From: an uncultured Sphingomonadales bacterium | GTDB lineage: Bacteria > Pseudomonadota > Alphaproteobacteria > Sphingomonadales > Sphingomonadaceae | DNA length: 44,503 bases | Assembly: GCA_903911985.1 (NCBI GenBank) | Contig: CAIWFP010000014.1 | Location: forward strand, 1 to 44,503 | Direction: 5' to 3' | Part shown: one piece after another, positions 1 through 42,957 of the stretch | Numbering within the stretch: position 1 is the first letter of the stretch | Layout of the letters: each line of letters starts with the position of its first letter | Translations under genes and position numbers: made by a program | The notes under the pieces: model-generated | Database searches by the model: none | What the model saw: the letters and a program-made list of their open reading frames with translations, nothing else | What the model was told of the DNA's origin: nothing

Positions 1-1
1 G

Positions 2-586
2 GCCAAGGCGGCCGGAATTTCCGAAGAAGCCATGCTGTACGACATGATGATGGAAAACGACGGCCAGGGCTTCATCTATGTCATCCTGGTCAACTATGGC
101 GATTACAACCTGAATTTCCTGCACGAACTGATGGACAACCCGACGGTGATTTCGGCCGGATCGGATGCCGGGGCGCATTGTGGGGCGATTTGCGATGCCG
201 CCATGCCGACCTTCATGCTCAGCCACTGGACCCGTGATCGCCGCGCCGGCCCAACCGTTGCGATCGAAAAAGTCGTCGAACGCCAGACCCGCGCCACCGC
301 CAGACTGTACGATCTGAATGACCGGGGCGTTCTGGCACCGGGCATGAAAGCCGATGTGAACGTGATCGACTATGCAAAGATCAACAGTTCGCGCCCCAAA
401 ATGGTCGCCGATCTGCCCGCGGGCGGGATGCGTCTGCTGCAAACCGCAACAGGGTACAAAATGACCATCGTCAGCGGTAAGGTGACGTTCGAAAACGGCA
501 TCGCCACCGGCGCGCTGCCGGGCAAACTGCTGCGCAGCGCACCCAATGCGTTTCAGCCCGCACCCGTGCACGAATTGGCAGGATAA
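2..586 (+). CDS. N-acyl-D-amino-acid deacylase family amidohydrolase, C-terminal part (5' end outside window)
   Basis: Frame open from window start. Motifs GSDAGAH, DRGVLAPGMKADVNVID, DLPAGGMRLLQTATGY and TGALPGKLLR are typical of the D-aminoacylase-like C-terminus. Confidence 0.8.
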   Translation, partial: AKAAGISEEAMLYDMMMENDGQGFIYVILVNYGDYNLNFLHELMDNPTVISAGSDAGAHCGAICDAAMPTFMLSHWTRDRRAGPTVAIEKVVERQTRATARLYDLNDRGVLAPGMKADVNVIDYAKINSSRPKMVADLPAGGMRLLQTATGYKMTIVSGKVTFENGIATGALPGKLLRSAPNAFQPAPVHELAG

Positions 587-594
587 TCATGAAA

Positions 595-619
595 AGGGGC
601 GCCGTTAGCCGGCGCCCCT
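595..619. terminator. GC-rich hairpin after amidohydrolase gene
   Basis: AGGGGCGCCG-ttagc-CGGCGCCCCT perfect 10-bp stem. U-tract is better on the minus strand. Confidence 0.55.
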
Positions 620-759
620 AATATCTGATCTCGGATCGATCCGGTCAGCACTTTCGCCAGATCATCTGGGCAGGACAGCAATCGCGAATGATCGCGATCA
701 AGCGTGATCATTTCGCAGGGCATTGCCGCGTGCCTGACGAGGAAGCCTTCGCATAAAAT

Positions 760-800
760 TCAACATATTTGTTGACTATCGGCTGAGGCACTTGTAACTT
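760..800 (+). promoter_or_regulatory. Operator A (TCAAC-N6-GTTGA) overlapping a sigma70-like promoter
   Basis: TCAACATATTTGTTGA at 760-775. TTGACT (772-777), 17-nt spacer, TAACTT (795-800). Confidence 0.7.
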
Positions 801-883
801 CTCAACATGTTAGCCTGGGTCTTATCGGCCAATTCACGGGCGGTGAGGTGCCTGCAGCCAGCGGCACAGGGGTGGAGATATCC

Positions 884-1330
884 GTGACGGACAGCGATCA
901 GATGAGCATGAATGCGCTCATGATTACACAGGAAACGCCGGTCGGGTATGCCTTGCAGCCGATCCGCAAAAAGGCCGCGATCCAGTTGATGGGATCGCGT
1001 TTGTGGGGGCGCTTCAATCCCAATCACTGGGATCCGGAATATGCCGCGGCGACTGGCTTGAAAGCGCCGATCCAGACCGGTGAGATGTCATCAGCCTATC
1101 TTGCCGAAATGTGCGTCAACCATTTTGGCGCAGCCGTGTTCGCAGGGGCGCGCATCGTGTGCAAATATGTCGCCGCAACACTGGCGGGGGAAGTCATCAC
1201 CACCCACGGCGTGGTCCGCGAAAAAATCGCCAAGGGCGATGGCTATCGCTTTGTCGTCGATATCTGGTGCGACAATGAGGCTGGCGAAAAGAAGACTGTG
1301 GGTTGGGTAGAGGTCGACGTCGGCGTCTGA
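884..1330 (+). CDS. MaoC-like hotdog-fold (R)-enoyl-CoA hydratase subunit
   Basis: NPNHWDPEYAAATGLKAPIQTG resembles the MaoC hydratase motif. GTG start chosen for the GGAG RBS just upstream (ATG at 902/908 are alternatives). Confidence 0.75.
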   Translation: MTDSDQMSMNALMITQETPVGYALQPIRKKAAIQLMGSRLWGRFNPNHWDPEYAAATGLKAPIQTGEMSSAYLAEMCVNHFGAAVFAGARIVCKYVAATLAGEVITTHGVVREKIAKGDGYRFVVDIWCDNEAGEKKTVGWVEVDVGV

Positions 1331-1363
1331 GCGCGACGCGCCGCAACGGAGATATTTTTCAAC

Positions 1364-1900: not shown

Positions 1901-1911
1901 GGTCGGCCATC

Positions 1912-3530: not shown

Positions 3531-3554
3531 TCACCCCGGCTTTGCACCGCGCCC

Positions 3555-5293: not shown

Positions 5294-5373
5294 CATTTTG
5301 AATTACCTTTCCCAAGCATCAGATAGGGCACAGTCCGGTGCGTTCGCGACCGAAGCAGACAGGGGCAAATGGC

Positions 5374-7101
5374 GTGACAATCGGGATTGGTGCAAGGACT
5401 CGTGGCCCGGCCACTGCGCGGCAGGCTGCGCTCGCCGCCCGCTTTCCGACCTGGCAAGCCTGTCGACTGGATGAAATGCTCGACCGGGTCGCGCAGGTAT
5501 ATCCTGACCGCGCCTATATCATTACGGACACCCGGACCTGGACTTACGCCGAAGTCGCCCAGTGGTCACGACGTCTGGCGGCCGGATTGCGGGCGCAAGG
5601 CGTGACCGAAGGCGATCATGTCGCGCTGATCATGGCCAATGATCCTGCCTTCATCGCGCTCAAATTTGCCATTTCGCGCATCGGCGCCGTGGCCGTACCG
5701 ATCAACGTGCAGAACCGGCGCGATGAATTGTCCTATCTGCTGGCGCAATCCGATTGCGCCATGCTGATCACCATGGATGCCTTTCGCGACAATGACTTTT
5801 GCGCCATCCTTGATGAGTTGATGCCGGGCTGGGAAACGCAAGGCGGCGGTAAACACTATCCGCGCCTGAAGCGTGTGGCCCTGTTTCACACCGGCAGTCG
5901 CCCGTTGCGTGCCACAGCGCTGACTTTCAACAAACTGGCCTGCGACAGCACGAACAGCACAGCCGCGCCAGGCCGCACCCAAGCAACCGCAGTCTGCGAC
6001 ATCCTGTATACCTCTGGCACGACCGGAGCGCCCAAGGGGGTGATGCTGAGCCATGATCAGATGCTGCGTGCCGCTTATGGCAGCGCCTATGCGCGCGCCT
6101 TCGAAGACGGGCGTCGCATCCTGTTTTCACTGCCGCTGTACCATGTCTATGGCTATGTCGAAGGCATGCTGGCGGCCCTGTTTGTGGGCGGCGCGGTGAT
6201 TGTTCAGAGCCGGTTCGATGCCGTGGCCATGCTCACGGCGATAGAACGGCACCGGGCCACCGACTTGCTGCTGATCCCGACGATGACGCTTGCGCTGATC
6301 GATGCGGCGCAAACGGCACGCCATGATACAAGCTCGTTGCAAGGCGTGCTGTCATCGGGTGGGCGGGCGCCCGAACGCATCTGGCGGGCAATTACTGCCA
6401 CATTCGGCGATGTCGAGATCACCACCGGCTATGGCATGACCGAATGCACCGCCTCCACAACGGTCACCCGCCCGGATGACCCGGTGTCGCGCCTGATGAC
6501 CACCAACGGCCGACAACGCGATGTGGGCGTGGCGGGCGATCCCGACAGCGGCAATCGCCTCGTAACCTATCAGGTGCGCGACCCGTCCACCGGGGCGACA
6601 CTCCCGGATGACACCCCGGGCGAATTGGTGGCAAGGGGTCCGGGTGTAACCAGCGGCTATTACAACAAGCCTGCCGAAACCGCAGCGACGTTTACACCCG
6701 ATGGTTGGCTGCGCACCGGAGACCTCGGCACAATCGACAGCCAGGGCTATATCCGCCTGATCGGCCGCACCAAGGAATCCTATCGGTGCGGCGGAGAGCT
6801 GGTGCTGCCCACCGAAATCGAAGACCTGCTGACCTCCAGCAACGAGGTCCTCCAGGCGCATGTCGTGCCCATCCCCGACGAGATCATGGGCGAAATCGGC
6901 GTCGCCTTTGTTGAACTGGCGGCCGATGCGACCGCCACCCCGGACCAATTGCGCCAGCTGGTCGCCACCAGACTGGCGCGCTTCAAGGTGCCAAGACATA
7001 TCTTCATCATCAATGCCACCGATCTGCCGGTCACCGCATCCGGCCGGGTGCGCAAATTCCTGCTGGCCGAACACGCCGCGCAACGGGTGGCAAGCCTGTG
7101 A
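5374..7101 (+). CDS. AMP-dependent acyl-CoA synthetase/ligase
   Basis: ILYTSGTTGAPKG, GYGMTE, GWLRTGDLG and LPVTASGRVRK. Start uncertain (GTG 5338 or 5374). Confidence 0.9.
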   Translation: MTIGIGARTRGPATARQAALAARFPTWQACRLDEMLDRVAQVYPDRAYIITDTRTWTYAEVAQWSRRLAAGLRAQGVTEGDHVALIMANDPAFIALKFAISRIGAVAVPINVQNRRDELSYLLAQSDCAMLITMDAFRDNDFCAILDELMPGWETQGGGKHYPRLKRVALFHTGSRPLRATALTFNKLACDSTNSTAAPGRTQATAVCDILYTSGTTGAPKGVMLSHDQMLRAAYGSAYARAFEDGRRILFSLPLYHVYGYVEGMLAALFVGGAVIVQSRFDAVAMLTAIERHRATDLLLIPTMTLALIDAAQTARHDTSSLQGVLSSGGRAPERIWRAITATFGDVEITTGYGMTECTASTTVTRPDDPVSRLMTTNGRQRDVGVAGDPDSGNRLVTYQVRDPSTGATLPDDTPGELVARGPGVTSGYYNKPAETAATFTPDGWLRTGDLGTIDSQGYIRLIGRTKESYRCGGELVLPTEIEDLLTSSNEVLQAHVVPIPDEIMGEIGVAFVELAADATATPDQLRQLVATRLARFKVPRHIFIINATDLPVTASGRVRKFLLAEHAAQRVASL

Positions 7102-7868
7102 CCGCGCCTGATGCCCCCGCGCGCAGGGTCGCGCTGGTAACCGGTGCCGCACGCGGCATCGGCGCGGCGATTGCCGGGCGCCTGGCGCGTGACGGCCATG
7201 ACGTGGTCGTGCTGGACCTGGATGCCGATGCTTGCGCCGCGACCATCGCGACGGTTCATGCTTGCGGTCGGCAAGCGCTTGCGCTGGCTGCCGATGTGTC
7301 TGACGAACGGTCCGTGGCAATGGCCATCGAGGCGGCCACCGCAGCGCTTGGCGCGCCGACCATCCTGGTCAACAACGCCGGCGTGCTGCGCGACCGCACG
7401 GTCGCGAAAATGAGCCTGGACGACTGGGAAACGGTCATGGCGGTCAATCTGCGCGGCGCCTTTCTGCTGAGCCGTGCGGTACAACCGGGCATGCGTGATG
7501 CAAAATGGGGCCGGATCGTCAACCTGTCCAGCACCGCCGCGCTCGGCGCGTTTGGCGAGGCCAACTACGCGGCGGCCAAGGCCGGTATCCAGGGCTTTAC
7601 CCGGTCACTCGCGCTGGAACTGGGCCGGTACGGGATAACGGTGAACGCGGTGGCACCGGGGTTTGTCGCCACCGACATGACCCGCGCCGTGGCGGAACGC
7701 AACGGCATGACATTTGCGGCGATGGAACAGGAAATGCTCAAATCCATCGTCGTCGGGCGCGTCGGCGCGCCCGACGATATCGCCAATGCAGTTGCCTTTT
7801 TTACTGATGCGCGATCGGACTTTGTCACAGGACAAACACTTTATGTCGCGGGTGCGCCACGCGGGTAA
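7098..7868 (+). CDS. SDR family oxidoreductase (FabG-like)
   Basis: TGAARGIG, NNAG and YAAAK catalytic motif. Confidence 0.9.
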   Translation: MTAPDAPARRVALVTGAARGIGAAIAGRLARDGHDVVVLDLDADACAATIATVHACGRQALALAADVSDERSVAMAIEAATAALGAPTILVNNAGVLRDRTVAKMSLDDWETVMAVNLRGAFLLSRAVQPGMRDAKWGRIVNLSSTAALGAFGEANYAAAKAGIQGFTRSLALELGRYGITVNAVAPGFVATDMTRAVAERNGMTFAAMEQEMLKSIVVGRVGAPDDIANAVAFFTDARSDFVTGQTLYVAGAPRG

Positions 7869-7956
7869 AGGGATGGCGCAGCCACTTTGCGCCGGAGCCA
7901 TGTTTCGTTACAGATGTGGCGGTTGTTGCAGCATTGCGGCCACCCAAGGAGTTTAA

Positions 7957-8640
7957 ATGCCGAAAACCTTGAAAATGAGTGCTGACACCGCTCCCAAAAG
8001 CAAGATGGGGCAGCGCCGCACTGCTGCGCGGATGGAATCGAGTGCGATCCAGCAATTGCGCCGCAAGGAAATTGCCGAAGCCGCCGTGCGCGTGTTCAAC
8101 CGGCTGGGCTTTCAAAAAGCCACCATCAGCGCCGTTGCGGCCGAACTGAATATCGACCGGGCATCGGTCTATTATTACATTTCGTCAAAGGAAGAGCTGT
8201 TCGACGAAATCGTGCGCACCGTGGTCGAGCGCAACCTTGAAACCGTTCACCGTATCGAATTGAGCGATTTGCCGCCGCGCCGCAAATTGCGCGATGTCAT
8301 CACCACCCTGATGTCATCCTATGCCGAAAACTATCCATTGTTTTACATATATATCCGCGAAAATCTCAGCCAGGTCAGCGACCGGCGATCAGACTGGTCG
8401 CGCTATATGCGGGAACTGAACCGGAAAACCTCGGAATCGCTGATTGCGATCATCGAACAGGGCTATGCCGACAAGAGTTTCCGCAACGTCGGATCGGCCA
8501 AAGTGGTGGCCTATGGCGCGCTTGGCATCGTCGGATGGACGCATCGGTGGTTCCGGCCGGAAACCAGCGAAGTCAATGCCGAGGAAATCGGCAAGATCTA
8601 TGCGGAAATGATCCTGAACGGTCTGGAGAACCCCTATTAA
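7957..8640 (+). CDS. TetR/AcrR family regulator (KstR2-like C-terminus), TetR-1
   Basis: HTH IAEAAVRVFNRLGFQKATISAVAAELNIDRASVYYYISSKEELF. C-terminal GIVGWTHRWFRP. Confidence 0.9.
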   Translation: MPKTLKMSADTAPKSKMGQRRTAARMESSAIQQLRRKEIAEAAVRVFNRLGFQKATISAVAAELNIDRASVYYYISSKEELFDEIVRTVVERNLETVHRIELSDLPPRRKLRDVITTLMSSYAENYPLFYIYIRENLSQVSDRRSDWSRYMRELNRKTSESLIAIIEQGYADKSFRNVGSAKVVAYGALGIVGWTHRWFRPETSEVNAEEIGKIYAEMILNGLENPY

Positions 8641-8650
8641 GCACGGGCAC

Positions 8651-9391
8651 ATGACTGGACGTCTGGCCGGCAAACGCGCCATTGTTACGGGCGGCGGTCA
8701 AGGCATTGGCCGTGCCGCGGTCGAACTGTTTGCCGCCGAAGGCGCGCATGTGCTGGCGCTCGACCTGGCCGCAGCCGCGCTGGCCGATGTGCAACAGGCC
8801 TGTGGTTGCGATACACGCGTGGTCGATGTTACGCAGGCCGATGGGATCGGTGCGATCGTGCAGGAGGCCGGACCCGTTGATATCCTGTTCCTGTGCGCAG
8901 GATATGTCCCGATCGGGACGATCCTCGACAGTGACCCGCAACAATGGGACCGCGCCTTCGCCGTCAACGTCACCGCCATGTATCACATGATCCGCGCCGT
9001 ACTGCCCGGCATGCTGGTACGCCAGACCGGATCGATCATCACGATGTCGTCGGTGGCGGGTTCGGTGCGCGGCGTGCCCGATCGATGCGTCTATGCCGCA
9101 ACGAAAGCGGCGGTAATCGGCCTGACCAAGTCGGTTGCCGCCGATTTTGCGGGCCAGGGCATCCGCTGCAACGCCATCTGCCCCGGAACCATCGATACCG
9201 GCTCGCTCAATGCCCGTTTGCGCGAAACGACGGATTATCAGGCTGCGCGCGCGGCGGTGGTGGCACGCCAGCCGATGGGCAGAATGGGCACGGCTGCCGA
9301 AATTGCGCAGGCTGCGGTCTATCTCGCCAGCGATGAATCCCGTTTCACCACCGGTCAATGCCACATCATTGATGGCGGTTGGGCAAACTGA
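8651..9391 (+). CDS. SDR family oxidoreductase (BDH2-like)
   Basis: TGGGQGIG, YAATK, NAICPGTIDT and ARQPMGRMG..EIA. Confidence 0.88.
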   Translation: MTGRLAGKRAIVTGGGQGIGRAAVELFAAEGAHVLALDLAAAALADVQQACGCDTRVVDVTQADGIGAIVQEAGPVDILFLCAGYVPIGTILDSDPQQWDRAFAVNVTAMYHMIRAVLPGMLVRQTGSIITMSSVAGSVRGVPDRCVYAATKAAVIGLTKSVAADFAGQGIRCNAICPGTIDTGSLNARLRETTDYQAARAAVVARQPMGRMGTAAEIAQAAVYLASDESRFTTGQCHIIDGGWAN

Positions 9392-9425: not shown

Positions 9426-9439
9426 ATACCAGCTGGTAT
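9426..9439. promoter_or_regulatory. Operator B (ATACC-N4-GGTAT)
   Basis: Perfect palindrome ATACCAGCTGGTAT. It sits within a possible TTGATA(9423)-N17-TATACC promoter upstream of the CaiB operon. Confidence 0.65.
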
Positions 9440-10633: not shown

Positions 10634-10634
10634 C

Positions 10635-12260: not shown

Positions 12261-12262
12261 CG

Positions 12263-14484: not shown

Positions 14485-14494
14485 CCACTCCGGC

Positions 14495-24108: not shown

Positions 24109-24164
24109 CCTGTGCCAGCCCACCGCTGGCGCGTGACTGCCCCGGTGCTACGAAGGATACCACA

Positions 24165-28786: not shown

Positions 28787-28799
28787 CGTAAGGTATTTA

Positions 28800-31376: not shown

Positions 31377-31572
31377 TCAACAGAGATGTAGATTAAGGCG
31401 ATCCATACTGTCAATAGCTGAAAGGTACCCAATCATACCCACTGGTATTTTAGCCTCTACTAGCCCAGGTGAAGCCCTCTTGATCCCTTTCCGGGTATTC
31501 CCGACACCAACGGCACCCACGCAGGCATCACCGTACCAAACGCCCGGAAATTGTTATCAACACATTTGTTGA
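31377..31572. promoter_or_regulatory. Divergent control region with operator A x2 and operator B
   Basis: TCAACAGAGATGTAGA (31377-31392), ATACCCACTGGTAT (31435-31448) and TCAACACATTTGTTGA (31557-31572). Confidence 0.7.
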
Positions 31573-33612: not shown

Positions 33613-34373
33613 CCGTGCCGGTCGAAATCGAATACCACGGCGCGACGCTGGTGATCGCCATCAACCGTCCGGCGCAACGCAACGCGGTGAATCAGGCCGT
33701 GTCGCTGGCCATCGCCGCGGCACTCGACACGCTCGATGCCGATCCGGCCCTGCGGGTGGGCATCATTACCGGGCGTGGCACATCGTTTTGTGCAGGGATG
33801 GATCTGCGCGCCTTTGTCGAGGGCGAACGCCCGGAAATGCCAGGTCGGGGATTTGCCGGCATTACCGAGGCACCGCCGAAAAAGCCGGTGATCGCAGCGG
33901 TTGAAGGCTTTGCCCTGGCCGGCGGATGCGAACTGGCGCTGGCCTGCGACCTGATCGTCGCGGCGCAGGATGCGTGGTTTGGCCTGCCCGAAGTGATGCG
34001 CGGGCTGGTTGCCGGTTCCGGCGGGCTGATCCGCCTGCCCCGCCGCATCCCCCCTGCGATTGCGCTGGAATATGCGCTGACCGGCGCGCGGATGGACGCC
34101 ACCACCGCCCAAGGCTGGGGCCTGGTCAATCGGCTGACCCCACCCGGGCAGGCGCTGACCGGGGCGCTGGCACTGGCGGCGCAAATCGCCGCCAACGCTC
34201 CGCTCAGCGTCGCCATGACCAAGCGCATCGTGCATGAATCCGCCAGCTGGGATGCCGATCAGCTGTGGGACACCCAACGCGCGCTGGTGGAGCCGGTGCT
34301 GGCATCGCGCGATGCTATCGAAGGGTCGCGTGCATTTGCCGAAAAACGTGATCCTGTTTGGAGTGGAACATGA
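33609..34373 (+). CDS. Enoyl-CoA hydratase / crotonase
   Basis: INRPAQRNAVN, FCAGMDL, GGCELAL and FGLPEV (both catalytic Glu). ATGA overlap. Confidence 0.92.
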   Translation: MTVPVEIEYHGATLVIAINRPAQRNAVNQAVSLAIAAALDTLDADPALRVGIITGRGTSFCAGMDLRAFVEGERPEMPGRGFAGITEAPPKKPVIAAVEGFALAGGCELALACDLIVAAQDAWFGLPEVMRGLVAGSGGLIRLPRRIPPAIALEYALTGARMDATTAQGWGLVNRLTPPGQALTGALALAAQIAANAPLSVAMTKRIVHESASWDADQLWDTQRALVEPVLASRDAIEGSRAFAEKRDPVWSGT

Positions 34374-35215
34374 CCAGATCAGTCGCGGTTGTCGGCGGCG
34401 GCACCATGGGTGTCGGCATCATCTATGTGTCGGCGCTGGCCGGTAGCGATGTGGTGTTTGTCGAACCCGATGCAGCGCGCGCCGCTGCGGTCGTGCGCAC
34501 GGTGGCCGACACCGCCGCCGCTGCGGTCACGCGCGGCAAGATAAACGTCGATGGTGCTGCGGCACTGTCGCAGCGGATCACCGGGCTGGCCGCGATCGAG
34601 GCGCTGCCCGCCGGACTTGATCTGGTGATCGAAACCGTTCCCGAACGGCTGGAGCTGAAGCTGGACGTGCTGGCGCGCATCGCCGCGCGCGCACCTGCGC
34701 TGATCGGCACCAACACCAGCGCGCTGTCGATCGACCGGCTGGCCGCCGCTTTGCCTGACCCCACGATGTTTCTGGGCATGCACTTTTTCAATCCGGTATG
34801 GTCGATCAAGCTGGTCGAGCTGGTTCAGGGCGCCGCCACTGCGCCGGTCGCGCTGGATCTGGCGCGGAGCTTTGTTGCGCACATTGGCAAGGAATCGCTG
34901 ACCGTGCGCGATGTGCCGGGCTTTGCCACCAGCCGGCTCGACCTGATTGCCAGCCTTGAAGCGATGCGCATGCTGGAAAGCGGGGTGGCCAGCGCGGCGG
35001 ACATCGATCGTGCCGCAGTGGTCGCCTATTGCCATCCGGTGGGGCCGCTGCGACTGAGCGATATTGTCGGGCTGGATGTCCGGCTGGATATCGCCCGCAC
35101 GCTGGAGGCGGCGCACGGGCCGCGTTTTGCCCCGCCACAGATTTTGATCGAGATGGTTGCCGGGGGCAAACTCGGCGCGAAATCCGGACAGGGCTTTTTC
35201 ACCTGGCCGGAATGA
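34370..35215 (+). CDS. 3-hydroxyacyl-CoA dehydrogenase
   Basis: GGGTMG, ETVPE.LELK, NTSAL, GMHFFNP and GKLGAKSGQGFF. Confidence 0.92.
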   Translation: MTRSVAVVGGGTMGVGIIYVSALAGSDVVFVEPDAARAAAVVRTVADTAAAAVTRGKINVDGAAALSQRITGLAAIEALPAGLDLVIETVPERLELKLDVLARIAARAPALIGTNTSALSIDRLAAALPDPTMFLGMHFFNPVWSIKLVELVQGAATAPVALDLARSFVAHIGKESLTVRDVPGFATSRLDLIASLEAMRMLESGVASAADIDRAAVVAYCHPVGPLRLSDIVGLDVRLDIARTLEAAHGPRFAPPQILIEMVAGGKLGAKSGQGFFTWPE

Positions 35216-35240
35216 TTTTTGGTTTTTTGGGAGACGATTG

Positions 35241-36422
35241 ATGTCAGCACCGTCGCTGTTTGAGTCCACGTTGGTCGATACCGCCGACCATCACCGCGAT
35301 CTGCGCGAAAGCGTGCGCAAACTGGTCAGCAAATTCGGCCGCAAATACTTTCAGCAGGTCGTCAACGCCGGTGAAAAACCGGTGGAACTGTGGAACGCCC
35401 TGGGTGAAGCCGGGTTTCTGGGCGTGCACATTGCCGAACAACACGGCGGCGGTGGCGGCGGTCTGTCCGAACTCAATGTGGTGATCGAAGAGGTTGCGGC
35501 CAACGGCTGCCCGATGTTGCAGATGGTGATCAATTCGATCACCGCGCCGATCATCGCCGGGTGTGGCACCGACGCACACAAGCGCGACTGGTTGCCGGGC
35601 ATCGCCAATGGCACGCGCCGGATGTCGTTCGCGATTACCGAACCCGACGCCGGATCGAACACCCACAAAGTCACCACCAACGCCCAGCGCACCAGCACCG
35701 GGTGGGTGATCAACGGCGCAAAATACTGGACATCCGCTCTGGATGAGGCTGATGCGGTGATGGTGGTGGCGCGCGACGGGGACCCGGTGCCGGATGGACA
35801 ACGGGCCGGCCTGTCGCTGTTTATTGTTCCCGCTGATGCCCCGGGCATTTCCAAAACCCGCATCGACAGTGCACTGCGCAGTTCGGAAAAGCAGTTTTCG
35901 GTGTTTTTCGATAATGTCGAAATTCCCGAATCCGCGCTGGTCGGCACGCCTGGCGCCGGGCTGCATCAGGTGTTTACCGGGCTGAACCCCGAACGCGTCG
36001 CCGCCGCTGCGGTCAACAACGGCATTGCGCGGTTCGCGATCGCGCAGGCCACACAATATTGCAAGGACCGATCGGTGTGGAAAACCCCGATCGGCGCGCA
36101 CCAGGGCGTCGCGCATCCGCTGGCCGAGGCCTATATCAACGTGCAGGCCGCGCGCCTGTTGACCGCGCGTGCTGCGCAACTGTGTGACGGAGGCGAAGAT
36201 GCCGCCGAAACCGCCAACATGGCCAAATTTGCCGCCGCCGAAGCATCGCTGAAAGCGCTCGACCAGGCGATTCAGGTGCATGGTGGCAATGGCCTGTCGA
36301 ACGAATATGGTCTGTCGGACCTGTGGTTCATCGCGCGCCTGCACCGCACCGCGCCGGTCAGCCGTGAAATGATCCTGAACTATGTTGCCCAGCACAGCCT
36401 TGGCCTGCCCAAGAGCTATTAA
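35241..36422 (+). CDS. Acyl-CoA dehydrogenase
   Basis: FAITEPDAGS, INGAKYWTS, LNPER, PIGAHQGVAHPLA and QVHGGNG. Confidence 0.93.
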   Translation: MSAPSLFESTLVDTADHHRDLRESVRKLVSKFGRKYFQQVVNAGEKPVELWNALGEAGFLGVHIAEQHGGGGGGLSELNVVIEEVAANGCPMLQMVINSITAPIIAGCGTDAHKRDWLPGIANGTRRMSFAITEPDAGSNTHKVTTNAQRTSTGWVINGAKYWTSALDEADAVMVVARDGDPVPDGQRAGLSLFIVPADAPGISKTRIDSALRSSEKQFSVFFDNVEIPESALVGTPGAGLHQVFTGLNPERVAAAAVNNGIARFAIAQATQYCKDRSVWKTPIGAHQGVAHPLAEAYINVQAARLLTARAAQLCDGGEDAAETANMAKFAAAEASLKALDQAIQVHGGNGLSNEYGLSDLWFIARLHRTAPVSREMILNYVAQHSLGLPKSY

Positions 36423-36438
36423 CCGGAAACCGAGCGCC

Positions 36439-37962
36439 ATGGTGCCGACCCTGCCCGATCTGTTGCGACATTTCGCCCGCACGACACCAGCGGCGCCGTG
36501 CGTGTCGTTCGGACAGGAAACGCTCGACTTCCTGGCGCTTGAGCGGCGCAGCAACCGGGTTGCCGCATTGCTGCACGACCATGGCGTAAACCCGGGGGAC
36601 CGCGTGGCATTCATCGCGCGCAACCTGCCCGAACATTATGAACTGTTCTATGGTTGTGCGAGGGCGGGAGCGATCTTGTTACCGCTCAACTGGCGCCTGT
36701 CGCCGGGCGAAGTTGCCCAGATCATCAATGACGCACAGCCCGCGCTGATACTGGTCGCAGATGAATTTCTGCCCCTGCTCAAAGAAACGCAGACCGCCTG
36801 CCCGGTCATCGTGTCAGATCGCGAATATGTCATCATGCGCGATGCCACATCGGCTGCCGAACAGGGCCGCACCATCGCCCGCGACGATGTGGCGCTGATC
36901 CTTTACACCTCTGGCACCACCGGTCAGCCCAAGGGCGTCGTGCTGACCCACGGCAACCTGGCGCTGGTGGATCGTATGGCGCGCGAAAAGTGGGGCTTTT
37001 CCTCCGCCAGCGTCAACCTGGTGGCGCTGCCGTTGTTTCACATTGGCGGCATCGGCTATGGCATGATGGCGCTCAGCCAGGGCGGGCACAGCGTGATCGT
37101 GCAGCAACCCTCGCCCGAAGCCGTGATCGCCAGCATCCACCAGCACCACATCACGCACTTGTTCCTTGTGCCGGCCGTTCTGCAGACACTGCTCGATGCG
37201 CCGGGCGTCGACACCATGGACCTGACGAGCGTGCAACGCATTATGTACGGGGCCGCACCGATCACCGAACAATTGGTCAAGCGCGCAATCAGGGTGTTCG
37301 GCTGCCAGTTCAACCATGCCTATGGCATGACCGAGACGGCCGGAACGGTCATCACGTCAGAGCCTGCAGACCATGATCCGGGCGGCCCGCTGGCGCATCG
37401 CTTGCGTTCATGCGGCAGGCCGGTTCCGTGGGTGGAGCTGGATCTGGTTGATCCGACTACCGGGGCCAGCGTGGCCACCGGCGAAGTCGGTGAAGTGTGT
37501 GTGCGATCACCGATGATCATGGCAGGCTATTGGCAAAAGCCATCTGAAACACTGGCCGCGAAAAATGCCGATGGTTGGCTGAAAACCGGCGATGCGGCAC
37601 TGATGGATGTGGACGGCTATGTCTATCTGCAGGACCGGTACAAGGACATGATCATTTCCGGCGGGGAAAATATCTATCCCACCGAAATCGAGAATGTTCT
37701 CAACAATCTGCCCGGCGTTTCCGAAGTCGCGGTCATCGGCGTGCCCCATGACAAATGGGGCGAAACGCCCTGCGCCTGCATCGTGCCGACCGGCGATGCC
37801 GCGTTGACCGAGAGTGCTGTGGTGGCGTTCGCACGTGACCACCTGGCGCATTACAAATGCCCGACCAAAGTCGTGTTTGTGCGCAGCCTGCCGCGCACCG
37901 CCGCGGGCAAGGTGATGAAGCGCGCAATGCGCGGCGAAGCATGGATCAAGGATCACACATGA
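36439..37962 (+). CDS. Long-chain fatty acid-CoA ligase
   Basis: LYTSGTTGQPKG, YGMTET, GWLKTGD, DRYKDMIISGGENIYP and LPRTAAGK. Confidence 0.92.
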   Translation: MVPTLPDLLRHFARTTPAAPCVSFGQETLDFLALERRSNRVAALLHDHGVNPGDRVAFIARNLPEHYELFYGCARAGAILLPLNWRLSPGEVAQIINDAQPALILVADEFLPLLKETQTACPVIVSDREYVIMRDATSAAEQGRTIARDDVALILYTSGTTGQPKGVVLTHGNLALVDRMAREKWGFSSASVNLVALPLFHIGGIGYGMMALSQGGHSVIVQQPSPEAVIASIHQHHITHLFLVPAVLQTLLDAPGVDTMDLTSVQRIMYGAAPITEQLVKRAIRVFGCQFNHAYGMTETAGTVITSEPADHDPGGPLAHRLRSCGRPVPWVELDLVDPTTGASVATGEVGEVCVRSPMIMAGYWQKPSETLAAKNADGWLKTGDAALMDVDGYVYLQDRYKDMIISGGENIYPTEIENVLNNLPGVSEVAVIGVPHDKWGETPCACIVPTGDAALTESAVVAFARDHLAHYKCPTKVVFVRSLPRTAAGKVMKRAMRGEAWIKDHT

Positions 37963-38765
37963 CGGATGGCCTGCACCCTTCGGCCCGGCTGCTGCGCGGC
38001 TTTGCCACCGATTTCCTGACTTGCCATGACCCGGCCGTGGTGCCCCGGATCATGGACCCGGCCTATCAACTGAACATTGGCGGGCACGTGCTGGCGGGCC
38101 GCGACCACGCCTATGCGCCGGCAACCGTGGCCCAGCTTGACCAGTTTCCGGGGCTGATCGTGACCGTGCACGATGTGCTGGTCGGGCCGGATATGGTGGC
38201 GATGCGGTTCACCGAACATGGCGTTTCGCGCAAGCATGCCCCCCATGCCGCAGCATGGGGCGGGGTGACGCTGTTTCAGATCGAAAATGGCCGGCTGCGC
38301 CATGGCTGGGCCGAAGAGGACTATTTTGCGCGCAAGCGGCAATTGGCCAGCGGCGTGTGCGATCTGATCCGGCCACCGGCATCTGCGCCATGGGATACGC
38401 CCTGCCTTGCGCCCGACCTGCAGGCCGAAGCGGTTGCACGCACCTGGCTGGAAGACCCGCGATCCTGCCTCGACGGCGAAATGGTGGAAACGATCGACTG
38501 CCATGGGCCGCTCGCCACAGCGCTGATCGCGCCACTGCATGTGCAGATCAACGCAGCGTTGTCCGCCGGACCGCGCGTGGCTTTCCAGATCGACGTGCAT
38601 GGTGCTTATGCTGGCGGATTTGACGACATCCCGACGGACCATGTCGGCTACCCCGTTATCCTGCGGTTCGCCGGCCTGCTGGACACCGCCGGCAATCGCG
38701 TGACCCGCGCACAGATAGTAGCCGACCGCCTTGGCCTGCAGCGCAGCCTGCTGGGTGCGCGATGA
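37959..38765 (+). CDS. SnoaL/NTF2-like ester-cyclase family protein (probable tandem domains)
   Basis: FPGLIVTVHDVLVGPDMVAMRFTEHG and GVTLFQIENGRL. Second half has GPRVAFQIDVHGAY. Overlaps both neighbours. Confidence 0.65.
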   Translation: MTDGLHPSARLLRGFATDFLTCHDPAVVPRIMDPAYQLNIGGHVLAGRDHAYAPATVAQLDQFPGLIVTVHDVLVGPDMVAMRFTEHGVSRKHAPHAAAWGGVTLFQIENGRLRHGWAEEDYFARKRQLASGVCDLIRPPASAPWDTPCLAPDLQAEAVARTWLEDPRSCLDGEMVETIDCHGPLATALIAPLHVQINAALSAGPRVAFQIDVHGAYAGGFDDIPTDHVGYPVILRFAGLLDTAGNRVTRAQIVADRLGLQRSLLGAR

Positions 38766-39688
38766 GCAAGATCATCATCACCTGCGCGGTCACCGGCGGC
38801 GCGCACACACCGACAATGTCGCCTGCCCTGCCGGTAACGCCGCAGGATATCGCCGATCAGGCCATTGCGGCCGCCGAGGCCGGCGCGGCAATCCTGCATC
38901 TGCACGCGCGCGTGCCGGAAACTGGCGCGCCGACCGGCGATCCTGATATCTATGCACGGTTCTTGCCGGTCATCCGCCAGCGCACCGATGCCGTGGTCAA
39001 CATCACCACCGGAGGATCGGCAACGATGCCGATGGCCGATCGCCTGGCGGCGGCCAAACGCTTTCGCCCGGAAATGTGTTCGCTCAACATGGGGTCGATG
39101 AACTTTGCGTTCTTTCCGGCAGCGCAGCGGATCACCACGTGGAAACACGACTGGGAACAGGCCTATGTGGTCAATTCCGACGACTATATCTTCCGCAACA
39201 CCTTTCGCGATATCGCGTATATCCTGGAAACGCTGGGCGATGCCGGCACCCGGTTCGAACACGAATGCTATGACCTGAGCCACTTGTACAATCTGGCGCA
39301 TTTCGTCGATCGTGGCTTGGTCAAGCCACCGTTCTTCATCCAGATGATCTTCGGCATTCTGGGCGGTATCGGCCCTGATCTTGAAAATCTGATGTTCATG
39401 AAATCGACCGCCGACCGGCTGTTTGGCCGCGATTCATTTCAATGGTCGGTTCTCGCCGCCGGCCGGCACCAGATGCCGTTCCTGACCCAGGCCGCGCTGA
39501 TGGGTGGCCATGTGCGCGTGGGTCTGGAAGACAGCCTGTTCATCGCGCGCGGCGAGCTCGCCACATCGAATGCCCAACAGGTGGAAAAGATCGTGCGCAT
39601 CATTCGTGATATGGGCCACGAACCGGCCACACCCGCCGAGGCGCGCGCAATGCTGAACCTGAAGGGCAACGATCGGGTGGAGTTCTAG
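38762..39688 (+). CDS. Beta-keto acid cleavage enzyme (BKACE/DUF849)
   Basis: KIIITCAVTG, AGAAILHLHAR, PEMCSLNMGS, EHECYD and GGHVRVGLED. Confidence 0.93.
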   Translation: MSKIIITCAVTGGAHTPTMSPALPVTPQDIADQAIAAAEAGAAILHLHARVPETGAPTGDPDIYARFLPVIRQRTDAVVNITTGGSATMPMADRLAAAKRFRPEMCSLNMGSMNFAFFPAAQRITTWKHDWEQAYVVNSDDYIFRNTFRDIAYILETLGDAGTRFEHECYDLSHLYNLAHFVDRGLVKPPFFIQMIFGILGGIGPDLENLMFMKSTADRLFGRDSFQWSVLAAGRHQMPFLTQAALMGGHVRVGLEDSLFIARGELATSNAQQVEKIVRIIRDMGHEPATPAEARAMLNLKGNDRVEF

Positions 39689-39690
39689 CC

Positions 39691-40467
39691 ATGGCACGCA
39701 CGATCATCGATCTGTCGATCTATCTGGAAAATGACGTCATTTCCGATCCGCCGCCCTATCGACCGAAAATCACCTACGTCGATCACCGCACGTCGGTGCC
39801 CGATCTGATCGGATTTTTTCCCGGATTGACCGAGGGCGATCTACCCGATGGCGAAGCCTGGGCGATCGAAAAGGTGGAACTGATCACCCACAACGGCACG
39901 CATCTCGACGCGCCGTATCATTTTGCTTCGACCATGAACAAGGGCGAGCGCGCGATCACCATCGATGAAGTGGCGCTGGACTGGTGCTTTCAACCCGGTG
40001 TGAAGCTGGACTTCACACGGTTTGCCGATGGCTACGTGGTGACCGCCGATGACGTCGCGGCAGAGCTTGCGCGCATTGGTCACACGCTGTCACCGCTGGA
40101 AATCGTCGTGGTCAACACCGCCGCCGGCAAACGCTATGGGCAGGACGACTATGTCACGGCCGGGTGCGGCATGGGCTATGAAGCCACGATGTACCTGCTC
40201 GAACGCGGCGTGCGGTTGACCGGAACCGACGGATGGAGCTGGGATGCGCCATTCGTCCACACCCGCGAACGCTATGAAGCGACCGGCAATGCCGGGCTGA
40301 TCTGGGAAGGCCACAAGGCCGGGCGAGACATCGGCTATTGCCACCTGGAAAAGCTGCACAATCTGGAAGTGCTGCCCCCCACCGGCTTTCTGGTGTCGTG
40401 CTTTCCCATGAAGATCCGCGCTGCCTCAGCAGGATGGACGCGCGCGGTCGCCATCCTCGACACCTGA
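39691..40467 (+). CDS. Cyclase family metal-dependent hydrolase
   Basis: HNGTHLDAPYHF, GTDGWSWDAP, EKLHNL and ASAGWTRAVA. Confidence 0.9.
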   Translation: MARTIIDLSIYLENDVISDPPPYRPKITYVDHRTSVPDLIGFFPGLTEGDLPDGEAWAIEKVELITHNGTHLDAPYHFASTMNKGERAITIDEVALDWCFQPGVKLDFTRFADGYVVTADDVAAELARIGHTLSPLEIVVVNTAAGKRYGQDDYVTAGCGMGYEATMYLLERGVRLTGTDGWSWDAPFVHTRERYEATGNAGLIWEGHKAGRDIGYCHLEKLHNLEVLPPTGFLVSCFPMKIRAASAGWTRAVAILDT

Positions 40468-40548
40468 TTTGCGGCATACGTCGGCGGCAGCACGGGCGTC
40501 GCCGATCCATTTGAAGTCCTTTGAGCGCCTGAAATCGGAGCTGGTTTA

Positions 40549-41727
40549 ATGAAAGACATATTCATCGTTTCGGGCGCTCGTACCGCGATCGGCACGTTTG
40601 GCGGCGGCCTAGCCTCATTGCGCCCGGCTGAACTTGCCACCATCGTCATCCGCGAAGCGATGGCGCGGGCCGGTCTGGCCCCGGACATGATCGAAAATGT
40701 GGTGATCGGCACGGTTGTCCCGACCCAACCCAAGGATGCCTATATCAGCCGGGTGGCGGCGGTTAACGCCGGCATCCCCATCGAAACACCAGCGATGAAC
40801 GTCAACCGACTGTGCGGATCAGGGCTGCAGGCGATCATCTCTGCGGCACAGGGAATAGCGCTTGGCGAACAGGCGATCGCCATCGGCGGGGGCGCCGAAA
40901 GCATGTCGAACGCGCCACACATGGTCCTGACAGCGCGCAACGGGCAGCGCATGGGCGATCAGGTGATGATGGACGTCATGCTGGGGGCGTTGCATGACCC
41001 GTTCGAAAATTTCCATATGGGCATAACCGCCGAAAATGTGGCCGAACGCTGCGACATTTCGCGTGAAATGCAGGACGCGCTGGCAGTCGAAAGCCATCGC
41101 CGGGCCTATGCGGCGATCACCAGCGGCTATTTCAGCGAGCAGATCGTCGCGTGCGAGATCTCGACACGCAAGGGCGTGACGGTGTTCGATACCGATGAGC
41201 ATGTTCGCCCTGACGCAAGTCTCGATGCCATGGCCGCGCTGAAGCCGGTGTTCAAAAAGGGCGGGACGGTTACCGCCGGCAACGCCAGCGGCATCAACGA
41301 CGGCGCTGCAGCGGTTGTCCTGGCCAGCGGCGAAGCCATTGCGCGGCACGGGTTGCGCCCGCTCGCGCGAATTCTGGGTTGGGGTCATGCCGGGGTTGAA
41401 CCCCAGGTTATGGGCCTGGGCCCGGTCAAGGCGGTGCCGATTGCACTGGCCAGAGCCGGACTGACGCTCGACCAGATCGATGTCATCGAATCCAATGAGG
41501 CCTTTGCGGCGCAAGCCTGCGGCGTTGCCCAGCAGCTCGGCTTTGATCCGGTCAAAACCAATCCCAATGGATCAGGCATTTCACTGGGCCACCCGATCGG
41601 CGCTACCGGAGCGATCCTGACGATCAAGGCCGCATACGAATTGCGCCGAACAGGCGCCCGCTATGGCCTGGTTACGATGTGCATCGGTGGCGGCCAGGGC
41701 ATCGCCATGGTCATTGAACGGGCATGA
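40549..41727 (+). CDS. bktB: Acetyl-CoA C-acyltransferase (beta-ketothiolase, BktB-like)
   Basis: RTAIGTFGG, NRLCGSGLQA, NEAFAAQA, NPNGSGISLGHPIGATG and MCIGGGQG. Closely resembles my recollection of Cupriavidus BktB. Confidence 0.85.
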   Translation: MKDIFIVSGARTAIGTFGGGLASLRPAELATIVIREAMARAGLAPDMIENVVIGTVVPTQPKDAYISRVAAVNAGIPIETPAMNVNRLCGSGLQAIISAAQGIALGEQAIAIGGGAESMSNAPHMVLTARNGQRMGDQVMMDVMLGALHDPFENFHMGITAENVAERCDISREMQDALAVESHRRAYAAITSGYFSEQIVACEISTRKGVTVFDTDEHVRPDASLDAMAALKPVFKKGGTVTAGNASGINDGAAAVVLASGEAIARHGLRPLARILGWGHAGVEPQVMGLGPVKAVPIALARAGLTLDQIDVIESNEAFAAQACGVAQQLGFDPVKTNPNGSGISLGHPIGATGAILTIKAAYELRRTGARYGLVTMCIGGGQGIAMVIERA

Positions 41728-41917
41728 ACCCCGCGATGCCAGACTATGCCGCAGCACCGTGCGACGCAGTCAGGTTGCGTGCGCCACACAACAAACTTGC
41801 TTTTGACTGTTTCACGCCGCCGCAAACAACATGCGCGCCGCATCCCTAATCCACTCCCAATGGGCAAGCTTGTCCATCAAGCCCTTCGGAATCCGTCCGG
41901 CACCATAGAGCGCCCCC

Positions 41918-42012
41918 GCCTCCTGCTTGAACTCCTCCGAATGCTTCATCATCTCGTCGGTCTCCTGTTGCGAGCCTAAAACGCTCTGGTGACCGGGCCA
42001 AAACCGTTTACA
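41918..42012 (-). mobile_element. IS3-family left end and truncated OrfA
   Basis: Minus strand begins TGTAAACGGTTTTGGCCCGGTC (TG terminus), then an AGGAG RBS and MMKHSEEFKQEA, typical of IS3 OrfA starts. Similarity is lost after that. Confidence 0.6.
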
Positions 42013-42209
42013 AGTCCAAGAAAGCATTTGAGGTCAGCGGTGATCGCTGTCTTGGTGGCTGGCGCCATAACCGCTACCGCCGCTTCGAGAGCGAGCGCGT
42101 TCGCACTGCGCGTGTCGAGCAGCGCGCCAAAGCGACGCAGTACCAGATCAACCGAGGACGGGAACGGCTGATCCTCAGGTCCGAGCATGTCGTTTTCGGG
42201 TGATTTCAT
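42013..42209 (-). pseudogene. Possible tyrosine recombinase N-terminal fragment truncated by the IS end
   Basis: MKSPEND...ALEAAVAVMAPATKTAITADLKCFL resembles the start of a Cre-like SAM domain. The frame runs directly into the IS terminus. Confidence 0.4.
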
Positions 42210-42430
42210 GGGGCGATTCTGGGCAAAAACGGCCCTTTCGGCAAGCATGGATTTACCATAATGTCCGACTATGGAAACACGCGCAGAGGTGGAGCGGCGA
42301 CGCAGATAGCCAAACGCAATGGCACCAAATGGAATGGAGCAGTGGTCGAGTTTCGCCAAAATCGCTCTCAAAAACGGCTCCTAGAATCGGTTGGCCGCAT
42401 ATCCGGAGCTCCTCGTCGCAGGACCTAAAT

Positions 42431-42669
42431 TGGGGGTATCTTTGGGGGTACCGAGAGGGGGTATCGGATTTTTAGCTATATAAATCCGTTATTTATTGGA
42501 ATTTCAAAATCCCTCCTCCGCTACTTTACCGCATCCAAACAATGTACAACTAAGGCCACTGAAATCCGACATCGTCTTTCTTTATTTAGTAAAAAAGCGT
42601 GCTGACGTACAGAAATTGCTGAGTGTGTCCACGTGCAGCCAGGCGGGCTTAGGGGGTATTTTGGGGGTA
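42431..42669 (+). repeat. GGGGGTA direct repeats (integrase arm-type sites)
   Basis: TGGGGGTA 42431, TGGGGGTA 42443, AGGGGGTA 42456, AGGGGGTA 42651 and TGGGGGTA 42662 in AT-rich DNA. Confidence 0.6.
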
Positions 42670-42935
42670 TTGATATTGTCGGCGCTCTGATCTCGTATGA
42701 TCACAACGCAACTAATAGAATATCTGAACGGGGTGAATTTCCAGCCTGTCGCCGATTGCGGAATTGACCCACCGAGCAAAAATGTCCAGCTTGAACCACT
42801 CATCGCAAAAAGGCTTCATTTGGACGCACAATGGAACCGAACCGCGTTTAAATTCCGTTGTGATGGTATTTTTGATGGATATCCCAACATCAAGCGGTGA
42901 ATAAAATATTATATTTCAACTTATTACAAACGCAT

Positions 42936-42957
42936 TTCGATTCCGTCCCCGGCACCA
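42936..42957 (+). mobile_element. Degenerate tRNA 3' end, probable attR of a genomic island
   Basis: TTCGATTCCGTCCCCGGCACCA = T-loop, T-stem, acceptor strand (1 nt short) and ACCA. No 5' tRNA half upstream. Sharp AT-to-GC switch at this point. Confidence 0.7.

Follow-up and report, generated by a model that had tools for sequence, protein, structure and literature searches.

A tRNA-Phe-associated island of an uncultured Sphingomonadales bacterium with a conserved monooxygenase and CoA-ester gene set and a predicted kinase-lyase module

Gene content of the island

The window analysed here is the whole 44,503-nt contig CAIWFP010000014.1 (C14) of an uncultured Sphingomonadales bacterium (assembly GCA_903911985.1, hereafter G000), whose genome of 2.6 Mb in 520 contigs is 75% complete. 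The window holds the right part of a catabolic island inserted at a tRNA-Phe gene. Within it, 35 whole genes lie between positions 848 and 41727, preceded by the end of an amidohydrolase gene (Table 1). The inventory was based on Pfam and NCBIfam profile scans of the window proteins. The genes very probably form a conserved, mobile and co-regulated catabolic set. The full reading, a tRNA-Phe island whose window set degrades an oxygenated, methyl-branched alicyclic compound of the terpenoid or apocarotenoid kind, is given a probability of about one half.

Five FMO-like (PF00743) flavin monooxygenase genes were present in the window, four of which are termed Baeyer-Villiger monooxygenases (BVMO1 to BVMO4) and one FMO. 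With one more match on contig C43, described below, all six PF00743 matches of G000 sit on the island. Two Abhydrolase_3 esterases, three AMP-binding ligases, a type II quinohaemoprotein alcohol dehydrogenase (QH-ADH), an aldehyde dehydrogenase (ALDH) and a TonB receptor were found, as were enoyl-CoA hydratase (ECH), 3-hydroxyacyl-CoA dehydrogenase (HADH), acyl-CoA dehydrogenase (ACAD), the thiolase BktB, a BKACE enzyme and two cyclase-family hydrolases. An earlier sequence-only reading of this DNA had listed all of these, and the scans confirmed them. It had also named two CoA transferases. The CaiB gene stands as such; the second gene belongs to the acetyl-CoA hydrolase/transferase family and lacks the catalytic Glu. 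The kinase/partner/phospho-lyase module, from which most can be learned about the chemistry, went unnoticed in that reading.

Boundaries of the island and contig C43

The island was correctly read as integrated, acquired and ending at a tRNA-derived att site. A tRNA-Phe(GAA) gene on C43 forms attL, an integrase frame adjoins it, a displaced 3' end of the same tRNA forms attR in the window, and the GC content shifts from 0.675 and 0.667 in the flanks to 0.61-0.62 within the island (0.65 in the rest of G000). The attR sequence differs by a 1-nt deletion, a missing G, from the tRNA-Phe(GAA) 3' end in the form common in the genus. ARAGORN detected no tRNA within the window and Rfam gave no match at the right end, because the att site is a mere fragment. 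The extent of the island had to be corrected, since its start lies about 29 kb upstream on C43, beyond the window. C43 ends with the same 141 nt with which the window begins; the shared stretch lies within a single amidohydrolase gene and was found on no other G000 contig. The two contigs were joined by this overlap and by the tRNA-Phe/purC geography, with no read spanning the join, and the element then measures 71,606 nt (about 71.6 kb) from the tRNA-Phe on C43 to attR in the window.

The tyrosine-integrase frame (C43:7662-8705) matched phrog_1 (E 3e-20). It ends at the boundary of an IS3 element and is probably non-functional. Pieces of IS3, a cut nitrite-reductase fragment and about 20 further catabolic genes follow on C43. 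The segment C43 9694-26723 (L016, L017) holds the nitrite-reductase fragment and a Rieske gene, a further two TonB receptors, two HpcH/citrate-lyase-like genes, a CaiB gene, an NtaA/DmoA-family and a second luciferase-like monooxygenase, a glutathione S-transferase (GST), an ALDH and the fifth BVMO. The sole Rieske match on the island adjoins the nitrite-reductase fragment and reads as nirD. The C43 cargo accompanies the pathway in near-identical carriers; in distant ones it is mostly absent, except for the GST, which is part of the cluster in the relatives read over wider stretches (G865-G867, G870, G869 and G072).

The right flank of the island had been taken as a conserved crp-DUF2892-purC arrangement (the small membrane protein is a putative DUF2892 protein, as labelled in the earlier reading). 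Only purC was conserved. Among 21 genus genomes, five have purC on the same strand as tRNA-Phe and downstream of it (at 5.8, 7, 16, 46 and 110 kb), one has it upstream and 15 have it on another contig. The crp and small genes were not found in the three tRNA-Phe-purC intervals fetched from genus genomes, and the exact empty junction was seen in no relative among the 21. The interval from tRNA-Phe to purC is a variable spot.

Mobility and habitat

Near-identical DNA was found in 20 runs of 11 studies among the matches listed, mostly lake or freshwater metagenomes, and no RNA run was among these matches. Two of the 20 runs may be the source of G000. Four runs were aligned (X3, X4, X5 and X8), of which X4 and X5 gave almost equal figures and may be one data set. 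The cargo was covered at 96-99% identity from C43:9724 to window position 40505-40632 in the aligned runs, and no long match to the host flanks, the integrase or most of bktB was seen in them. Two contigs, one of 67,744 nt in X8 and one of 3,494 nt in X3 (contig records matched by equal length and depth), lead from the cyclase 2 end through about 2.5 kb of other sequence to C43:9724. Their gene order is a circular permutation of the G000 order, which suggests a circular or insertion sequence (IS)-mediated intermediate. The island resembles typical tRNA-integrated islands with a tyrosine integrase in having the tRNA at one end, the displaced 3' fragment at the other, an adjoining integrase and a GC shift. 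It differs from them in that the integrase is cut at the IS3 start and the cargo is found permuted elsewhere without these ends, and for these reasons IS- or circle-mediated movement is likely. A single metagenome match to the 20-nt junction pattern (L161) proved to be unrelated DNA.

Up to about 20 contigs encode identical proteins. Series of island genes, 95-100% identical, were also seen in EukProt records under the label Dinobryon pediforme, where four protein predictions (P0244, P0259, P0294 and P0310) are chimeric and span several island genes. These records are a probable bacterial contamination of the algal data set by a companion bacterium.

Co-conservation of the gene set

In a synteny search the modules were found to be co-conserved. 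Species genomes were scanned with FMO and window genes were counted within 10 kb on each side. At least 10 window genes were present in 11 of the 38 FMO-centred loci, and many of the others are short contigs. Ten of the 11 rich loci are in Sphingomonadales-type metagenome-assembled genomes (MAGs) in window order, and one is in a Sterolibacteriaceae MAG with a rearranged order. The FMO-related loci carry mostly Novosphingobium, Sphingorhabdus or Sphingomonadales titles. A wider count, with matches of at least 40% identity in 17 genomes or loci chosen from earlier matches, gave 33 of the 35 window genes in G865, G866 and G867, 28 in G870, 26 in G869 (Sterolibacteriaceae) and 20 in 40 kb of G072. 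Orthologues in these relatives are 54-89% identical; the order is rearranged and the genes remain together.

Smaller subsets were also observed. A 14-17-gene subset without the FMO block (MaoC-DUF35-thiolase, BVMO1, ligase 1, SDR1, TetR1 and ECH-HADH-ACAD-ligase 3-SnoaL-BKACE-cyclase 2; SDR, short-chain dehydrogenase/reductase) is present in pSFD01, G324, G165, G1132 and G1062, and a 9-gene subset in G903 and G1002. Five to six FMO-block genes are present in Rhodococcus opacus DSM 44186, Jatrophihabitantaceae and Rhodospirillales loci, where FMO, cyclase 1 and ligase 2 are the core common to the actinobacterial loci. The set is rare. None of 400 phylum genomes has an FMO orthologue, and 24 of 375 genus genomes carry one of BKACE; when 10 of these 24 were probed with the left 20 kb, seven matched and three did not. 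In plasmid searches the lower module was found only on pSFD01, and distant FMO homologues on four records. On pSFD01, from Sphingopyxis sp. FD7 (L121, L122), the lower module is present in two to three incomplete copies, next to ribB, IS elements, a gene resembling those for flavin reductases and a cluster for protocatechuate 4,5-cleavage. Cytochrome P450 genes lie inside the cluster in G867 (L135:1765-3006) and G869 (L143:5802-8040, plus a ferredoxin-reductase-like gene) and are possible extensions of the substrate range. A valine/isobutyrate-type operon lies beside BVMO1 in G865-G867; these genomes are kin, and the operon was not counted as evidence.

Operators and regulators

Two shared operator motifs had been claimed, one of which lies well above chance. 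M1 (TCAACA-N4-TGTTGA) gave seven window matches with up to two mismatches against 1.03 expected, a count reached by 0 of 100 shuffles. Three window copies are exact and no exact copy was found in the other 2.56 Mb of G000. Six of the seven lie at a gene start or upstream of one; the seventh (29149) is intragenic. The enrichment of M2 (ATACC-N4-GGTAT) is weaker and marginal, with two matches against 0.24 expected and one of 100 shuffles reaching two. An M2 copy with no or one mismatch lies upstream of CaiB at the matching place in related loci, and both motifs recur at corresponding promoters in relatives. In the stretches examined, pSFD01 carries exact M1 sites and TetR1 but no orthologue of TetR2, and exact M2 sites are confined to TetR2 carriers (G866, G867 and G072). 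We therefore infer a pairing of M1 with TetR1 and of M2 with TetR2. Five of the other lower-module carriers, with only 1-mismatch M1, and G865 and G870 without an exact M2, argue against this pairing.

The two regulators and two motifs, together with the separate existence of the 14-17-gene, 9-gene and 5-6-gene subsets, would suit a toolbox in which peripheral pathways, at least two and for different substrates, are gathered around a common lower module. Against this, inversions have not separated the full set in G865-G867, G870, G072 and a non-alphaproteobacterial Sterolibacteriaceae genome, the promoter at 31377-31572 has both M1 and M2, and in relatives M1 sites stand before genes of both tiers. 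Such a toolbox appears rather unlikely. The earlier claim of a single acquired pathway thus stands in so far as the set is acquired and co-conserved; the set is also modular, with the 14-17-gene subset alone in five genomes or records, and a single pathway is likely.

Active sites of individual enzymes

Type I BVMOs carry two GxGxxG motifs, the motif GGxWxxNxYPGxxCD, a catalytic Arg and the fingerprint FxGxxxHxxxW. The GxGxxG pair, GGxWxxNxYPGxxCD and the catalytic Arg were found in BVMO1 to BVMO4 and in the C43 BVMO. The fingerprint is canonical in BVMO2 and BVMO3, has Tyr for Trp in BVMO4 and Tyr for His in BVMO1, the orthologues of which have His or Tyr. The best PDB match of the QH-ADH was 1kv9 (E 7.6e-206), and its PQQ propeller, vicinal Cys pair (CC) and C-terminal CxxCH haem domain are all present. 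BKACE scored 522.1 against the 3,5-dioxohexanoate:acetyl-CoA acetone transferase equivalog NF053538 (cut-off 430). No solved relative of the SnoaL protein was found by sequence; an epoxide hydrolase role for it would be conjecture.

Two proteins have altered active sites. The SCP2-thiolase-fold protein retains the N-terminal Cys, and the catalytic His residues of the HDxF and GHP motifs are both replaced, by Ala and Glu (compared with 7yvy, 7pxp and 6hsj). The replacement was conserved in nine of nine orthologue matches checked. Because both His residues are missing, the C-C cleavage chemistry predicted for this protein is non-canonical. The protein at 15291-16523 has the 4-hydroxybutyrate CoA-transferases as nearest relatives and carries Gly at position 238 of 3gk7, which we take to be the catalytic Glu of family I CoA-transferases. 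Gly or Thr occupies this position in 12 of 12 orthologues and Gly in five distant paralogues. With the catalytic Glu missing in the window protein and its orthologues, the protein probably does something else with a CoA ester than CoA transfer.

FMO has an FMO-type fingerprint and FMOs as its nearest solved structures, and cyclase 2 is a remote relative of the isatin hydrolases (E 7e-7). Both features would suit a nitrogen-containing ring (an alkaloid, cyclic amine or lactam), of which FMO would oxidise the nitrogen and the cyclases and amidohydrolase would cut amides, the skeleton then entering the BVMO/CoA route. The actinobacterial core of FMO, cyclase 1 and ligase 2 points the same way, as does a hydantoinase pair beside an FMO homologue on a Methylobacterium plasmid. 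However, no aminotransferase, amine oxidase or demethylase was found among the window genes, and of the genomes read, G869 alone has the amidohydrolase with the cluster. FMO-type enzymes can also carry out Baeyer-Villiger reactions, and the enzymes of the cyclase family are metal hydrolases of a general kind. A substrate of this type is considered unlikely.

The kinase, partner and lyase module

The 375-aa protein at 16536-17663 was assigned to the Rv3169 family, and its structure was modelled with a pLDDT of 77. The model matched 25-phosphosteroid lyase (25-PSL) with a Foldseek E of 6e-20 (TM 0.66-0.70) and a VIA Z of 31.7 (rmsd 3.2, 305 aligned), the next family reaching Z 19.8. From its modelled fold the protein is likely a phosphate-eliminating lyase. 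The APH-family kinase encoded upstream has intact HGD and D-W-E motifs and matched the ACAD11 kinase domain (8v3v, E 1e-8) and 3dxp. A complex of the kinase with the 154-aa protein was predicted with a score of 0.86, compared with 0.00 for the best of three controls; the mark for the complex score was reached by 116 of 157 solved pairs and two of 215 mismatched pairs. The runs agreed in at least 93% of the contacts, and the partner had a pLDDT of at least 89. The 154-aa protein is thus predicted to bind the kinase in a role like that of LvaB, and kinase, partner and lyase together are likely an ATP-driven dehydratase. A fold search with the partner gave a best Z of 7.8, to a common helical arrangement. 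Its homologue P0229 had an Atlas feature match to a cluster with 13% DUF6285 (score 0.88), which is taken as a lead only.

In the available passages of PMC8449060 and PMC11061730, a kinase (25-HSK) and lyase (25-PSL; PDB 9fzn, 9g2i, 9g4c) of Sterolibacterium denitrificans dehydrate tertiary steroid alcohols via a phosphoester. The kinase prefers tertiary alcohols, and the two genes are not neighbours and serve anaerobic sterol side-chain oxidation (passages of PMC8449060). The island resembles this system in the lyase fold (21% identity at Z 31.7) and the APH-family kinase nearby, and ATP-dependent dehydration via a phosphoester is the logic drawn here from that likeness. It differs in its adjacent genes, the predicted small kinase partner, the O2-dependent BVMO context and the lack of steroid ring genes. 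According to passages of PMC6692424, LvaA and the small LvaB of Pseudomonas putida interact and phosphorylate 4-hydroxyvaleryl-CoA. The LvaAB(CDE) levulinate pathway and ACAD10/11 share with the island an APH kinase followed by a small predicted binder and a neighbour of the 4-hydroxyacyl-CoA type. Unlike LvaABCDE, the island has no adjoining LvaC-like ACAD and a PSL-fold protein in its place, and its partner has no match to the DUF6285 hidden Markov model (HMM).

The lyase fold could also indicate that the substrates are steroids or their fragments (hydroxylated side chains, 20-keto steroids or C/D-ring remnants). BVMO3 is near steroid monooxygenase (E 1e-179), the MaoC-DUF35-thiolase-fold layout recalls ChsH1/ChsH2/Ltp2, and one carrier is a Sterolibacteriaceae MAG. 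Yet BVMO3 is closer to PAMO, its best PDB match (E 6e-189), and the thiolase-fold protein matched 6ok1 with E 3e-29 and scored higher against archaeal and BbsB/SCP2 thiolases. No steroid ring genes were found on the island. KshA_C was not found in the 75% complete G000, so the host lends no support to the steroid-like substrate proposed earlier. A steroid substrate is very unlikely.

Distant lyase homologues were found on 23 plasmid records. A distant APH/DUF7065 pair lies near the G869 cluster, and distant APH and DUF7064/DUF7065 genes adjoin the lower module in six other genomes (L137, L145, L146, L154, L155 and L158). Within G000, which is incomplete at 2.6 Mb, two of the three DUF7064 matches are on contig C250 with a TonB receptor fragment. 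The DUF7064/7065 genes beside lower modules were not counted as lyase orthologues, the HH comparison of the lyase alignment with one such distant protein not being significant (probability 1.9).

Proposed pathway and substrate

The established logic of SDR, BVMO, esterase and CoA activation holds for this set. The compound would be taken up through the TonB receptor, and its alcohols would be oxidised by QH-ADH, the SDRs and ALDH. The BVMOs and FMO would insert oxygen repeatedly beside substituted carbons, and the esterases and cyclase-family hydrolases would open the resulting ester or lactone before CoA activation. An unoxidisable hydroxyl, either tertiary or on C4 of an acyl-CoA, would be phosphorylated by the two-subunit LvaAB-like kinase, and the 25-PSL-like enzyme would eliminate the phosphate to give an enoyl-CoA. 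The lower module (ACAD/ECH/HADH, the MaoC pair with the DUF35-thiolase-fold C-C cleaving enzyme, BKACE and cyclase 2) would yield acetyl-CoA and acetoacetate. Two TetR_C_24 repressors would control the set via M1 and M2.

Apart from the nirD-like gene, the scanned genes of the island included no aromatic ring-cleavage dioxygenase or Rieske oxygenase, which speaks against an aromatic core. Neither steroid ring genes nor a C-H hydroxylase were found among them, and these absences, taken with the functions that the set would provide, fit an already oxygenated, methyl-branched alicyclic molecule. Terpenoids and apocarotenoids would be the obvious natural class in fresh water. Plain hydrocarbon terpenes, probably including geosmin and 2-methylisoborneol, would need genes from elsewhere; the latter two were ranked low as substrates, the conserved set having no C-H hydroxylase.

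Several observations weigh against this assignment. No P450 or other C-H hydroxylase was found in the window, and FMO, the two cyclases and the amidohydrolase would fit a nitrogen-containing substrate equally well. The lyase match to 25-PSL is at only 21-23% identity and reflects a shared fold only. The HMM of DUF6285, the family of LvaB, matched none of 66 partner homologues and nothing in G000. APH (24 matches) and DUF7064 (three) are common elsewhere in G000, and the presence of such genes near related clusters is for that reason weak evidence. G869 has no orthologous kinase-lyase block in the 80 kb read and keeps most of the other genes. The best full matches, G865-G867, are close kin, and the substrate and every reaction are predicted from gene content.

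As a more specific candidate, apocarotenoid lactones of the loliolide or dihydroactinidiolide type, or related ones, may be proposed for lake sphingomonads living beside algae, as a quite doubtful guess. Such a lactone, once opened, is a 4-hydroxy acid with a tertiary hydroxyl. That hydroxyl would need the LvaAB-like kinase and the 25-PSL-like lyase, and the BVMOs would dismantle the trimethylcyclohexane ring. The ecological hints are limited to the freshwater runs and the Dinobryon pediforme records with their 95-100% identical copies.

Comparison with known pathways

The island is real and well bounded. It is a BVMO/CoA catabolic cluster of a kind already known, with an unusual predicted dehydration step. 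No characterised cluster of such make-up was found in plasmid and literature searches, in agreement with the earlier statement that the gene set is not a recognised pathway; most subscription journals and closed supplements were outside the scope and could hold a match. The camphor (cam), limonene (lim) and cineole pathways use SDR, BVMO, lactone hydrolysis, CoA ligases and beta-oxidation, as the window set would, and a luciferase-like monooxygenase lies beside the lower module in several relatives. Unlike these pathways, the window has no P450, five to six class B monooxygenases instead of one or two, and BKACE, kinase-lyase and QH-ADH in addition. The limonene cluster of S. yanoikuyae A-TP has a lactonase and one named BVMO in the available text (bioRxiv 10.1101/2025.04.30.651573) and was compared by description only, not gene by gene. 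For Rhodococcus sp. P1Y, shortening of the abscisic acid side chain by loss of C2 to a methyl ketone, a BVMO step and a tertiary-alcohol acid has been proposed (PMC9599779). This chemistry would be within the capability of the window set; the passages name no genes, and the likeness is one of chemistry, with no sequence link of P1Y or of Novosphingobium P6W to the window cluster. The available passages of PMC7273453 and of the A-TP and NetSyn preprints do not tie a substrate to the window gene set.

The BVMO-esterase pairs and the long, N-extended BVMO4 recall the SAPMO/HAPMO systems and could reflect a xenobiotic route in new hosts, for sulfophenylcarboxylate from linear alkylbenzene sulfonate (LAS) or for an aryl-alkyl ketone degraded by an acetophenone-type BVMO and esterase. 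The host of pSFD01 came from industrial cooling water (passages of PMC7273453). However, the actinobacterial orthologues are 40-53% identical, and so deep a divergence across phyla speaks for a natural substrate of long standing. Genes for aromatic ring cleavage or desulfonation are absent from the conserved set, and the literature search found no matching cluster. This origin is highly improbable.

The conservation of the 35-gene set across classes, its enrichment in freshwater records and its recent transfer point to a natural lake compound whose breakdown route was not found in print. The island offers five or six uncharacterised class B flavin monooxygenases, and three enzymes with rebuilt active sites or unassigned roles (the His-less thiolase fold, the Glu-less CoA-transferase fold and the PSL-fold lyase). 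The two putative TetR-operator pairs would be directly usable as reporters in a search for the inducer. If the kinase-lyase step is true, ATP-driven removal of unoxidisable hydroxyls would be a tool in general use in aerobic catabolism. The Rv3168/Rv3169-type families would then gain a second tested context. If the apocarotenoid-lactone reading is true, the set would, to our knowledge, be the first route with known genes for this pool of carbon and the first case of phosphorylation-elimination inside an oxygenase pathway.

Features and minor observations

Table 1. Genes, putative operators and end features of the island (window positions unless C43 is given).
Feature	Position	Strand	Remark
attL, tRNA-Phe(GAA)	G000:C43:7361-7436		
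Amidohydrolase (Amidohydro_3), C-terminal part	2..586	+	N-terminal part at C43 34902-36226
M1, exact	760..775		putative TetR1 site
MaoC-like (hot-dog) hydratase subunits, two	848-1330, 1364-1900	+	
M1, 1 mismatch	1359		at the MaoC-like genes
DUF35/ChsH2 OB-fold protein	1912-2340	+	
SCP2-thiolase-fold protein	2337-3530	+	PRK06059
BVMO1	3555-5150	-	PAMO/STMO-type
M1, exact	5206-5221		divergent BVMO1/CoA-ligase-1 promoter
M1, two mismatches	5278-5293		same promoter
CoA ligase 1, SDR1, TetR1 (TetR_C_24), SDR2	5338..9391	+	
M2, exact	9426..9439		putative TetR2 site
CaiB CoA-transferase	9539-10633	+	first of operon-like run 9539..15154
BVMO2	10635-12260	+	
Esterase 1	12263-13183	+	
FMO	13180-14484	+	
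TetR2	~14471-15154	+	
4-Hydroxybutyrate CoA-transferase-fold protein	15291..16523	-	
Rv3169-family protein	16536..17663	-	375 aa
All-helical protein	17667..18131	-	154 aa
APH-family kinase	18128..19159	-	
Cyclase-family hydrolase 1	19168-20049	-	
CoA ligase 2	20049-21638	-	
BVMO3	21638-23254	-	
SDR3 and esterase 2	23338..25085	+	
ALDH	25126-26538	-	
Type II quinohaemoprotein ADH	26566-28707	-	
TonB-dependent receptor	28800-31313	-	
Divergent promoter	31377..31572		M1 at 31377 and 31557; M2 at 31435
BVMO4	31657-33612	+	651 aa, N-terminal extension
ECH, HADH, ACAD, CoA ligase 3	within 31657..41727	+	
SnoaL-domain protein, BKACE, cyclase 2, BktB thiolase	within 31657..41727	+	
Mobile-element debris	41780..42669	.	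IS3-like fragment; GGGGTA tandem motifs at 42433 and 42653
Degenerate tRNA-Ser-like 3' end	~42505-42525		by eye
attR, displaced tRNA-Phe(GAA) 3' end	42936..42957	+	
Host flank: crp-family regulator, small membrane protein, purC start	42987..44503	+	GC 0.667

The tRNA-Ser-like remnant at the right end is possibly the end of an earlier island. Window positions 42292-42524, which contain the first GGGGTA motif and this remnant, match the terminal part of a 6-kb contig in run X8 with 0 differences, a hint of the end of an earlier island from another host. Repeats within the window were rejected as structural repeats and are due to paralogue similarity. The crp-family gene contains a short low-complexity repeat insertion (ADG-type units) in the helix-turn-helix region (window 43560-43640). 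A second purC 5' end was found in G000 (C111, 12282-13076), with 94% DNA identity to window 44379-44503 and a different upstream sequence. Unlike the purC 5' end, uvrC, maf and rne of C43 are single-copy. The G000 bin may be a mix of two close populations. The tmRNA of G000 is of the permuted type.

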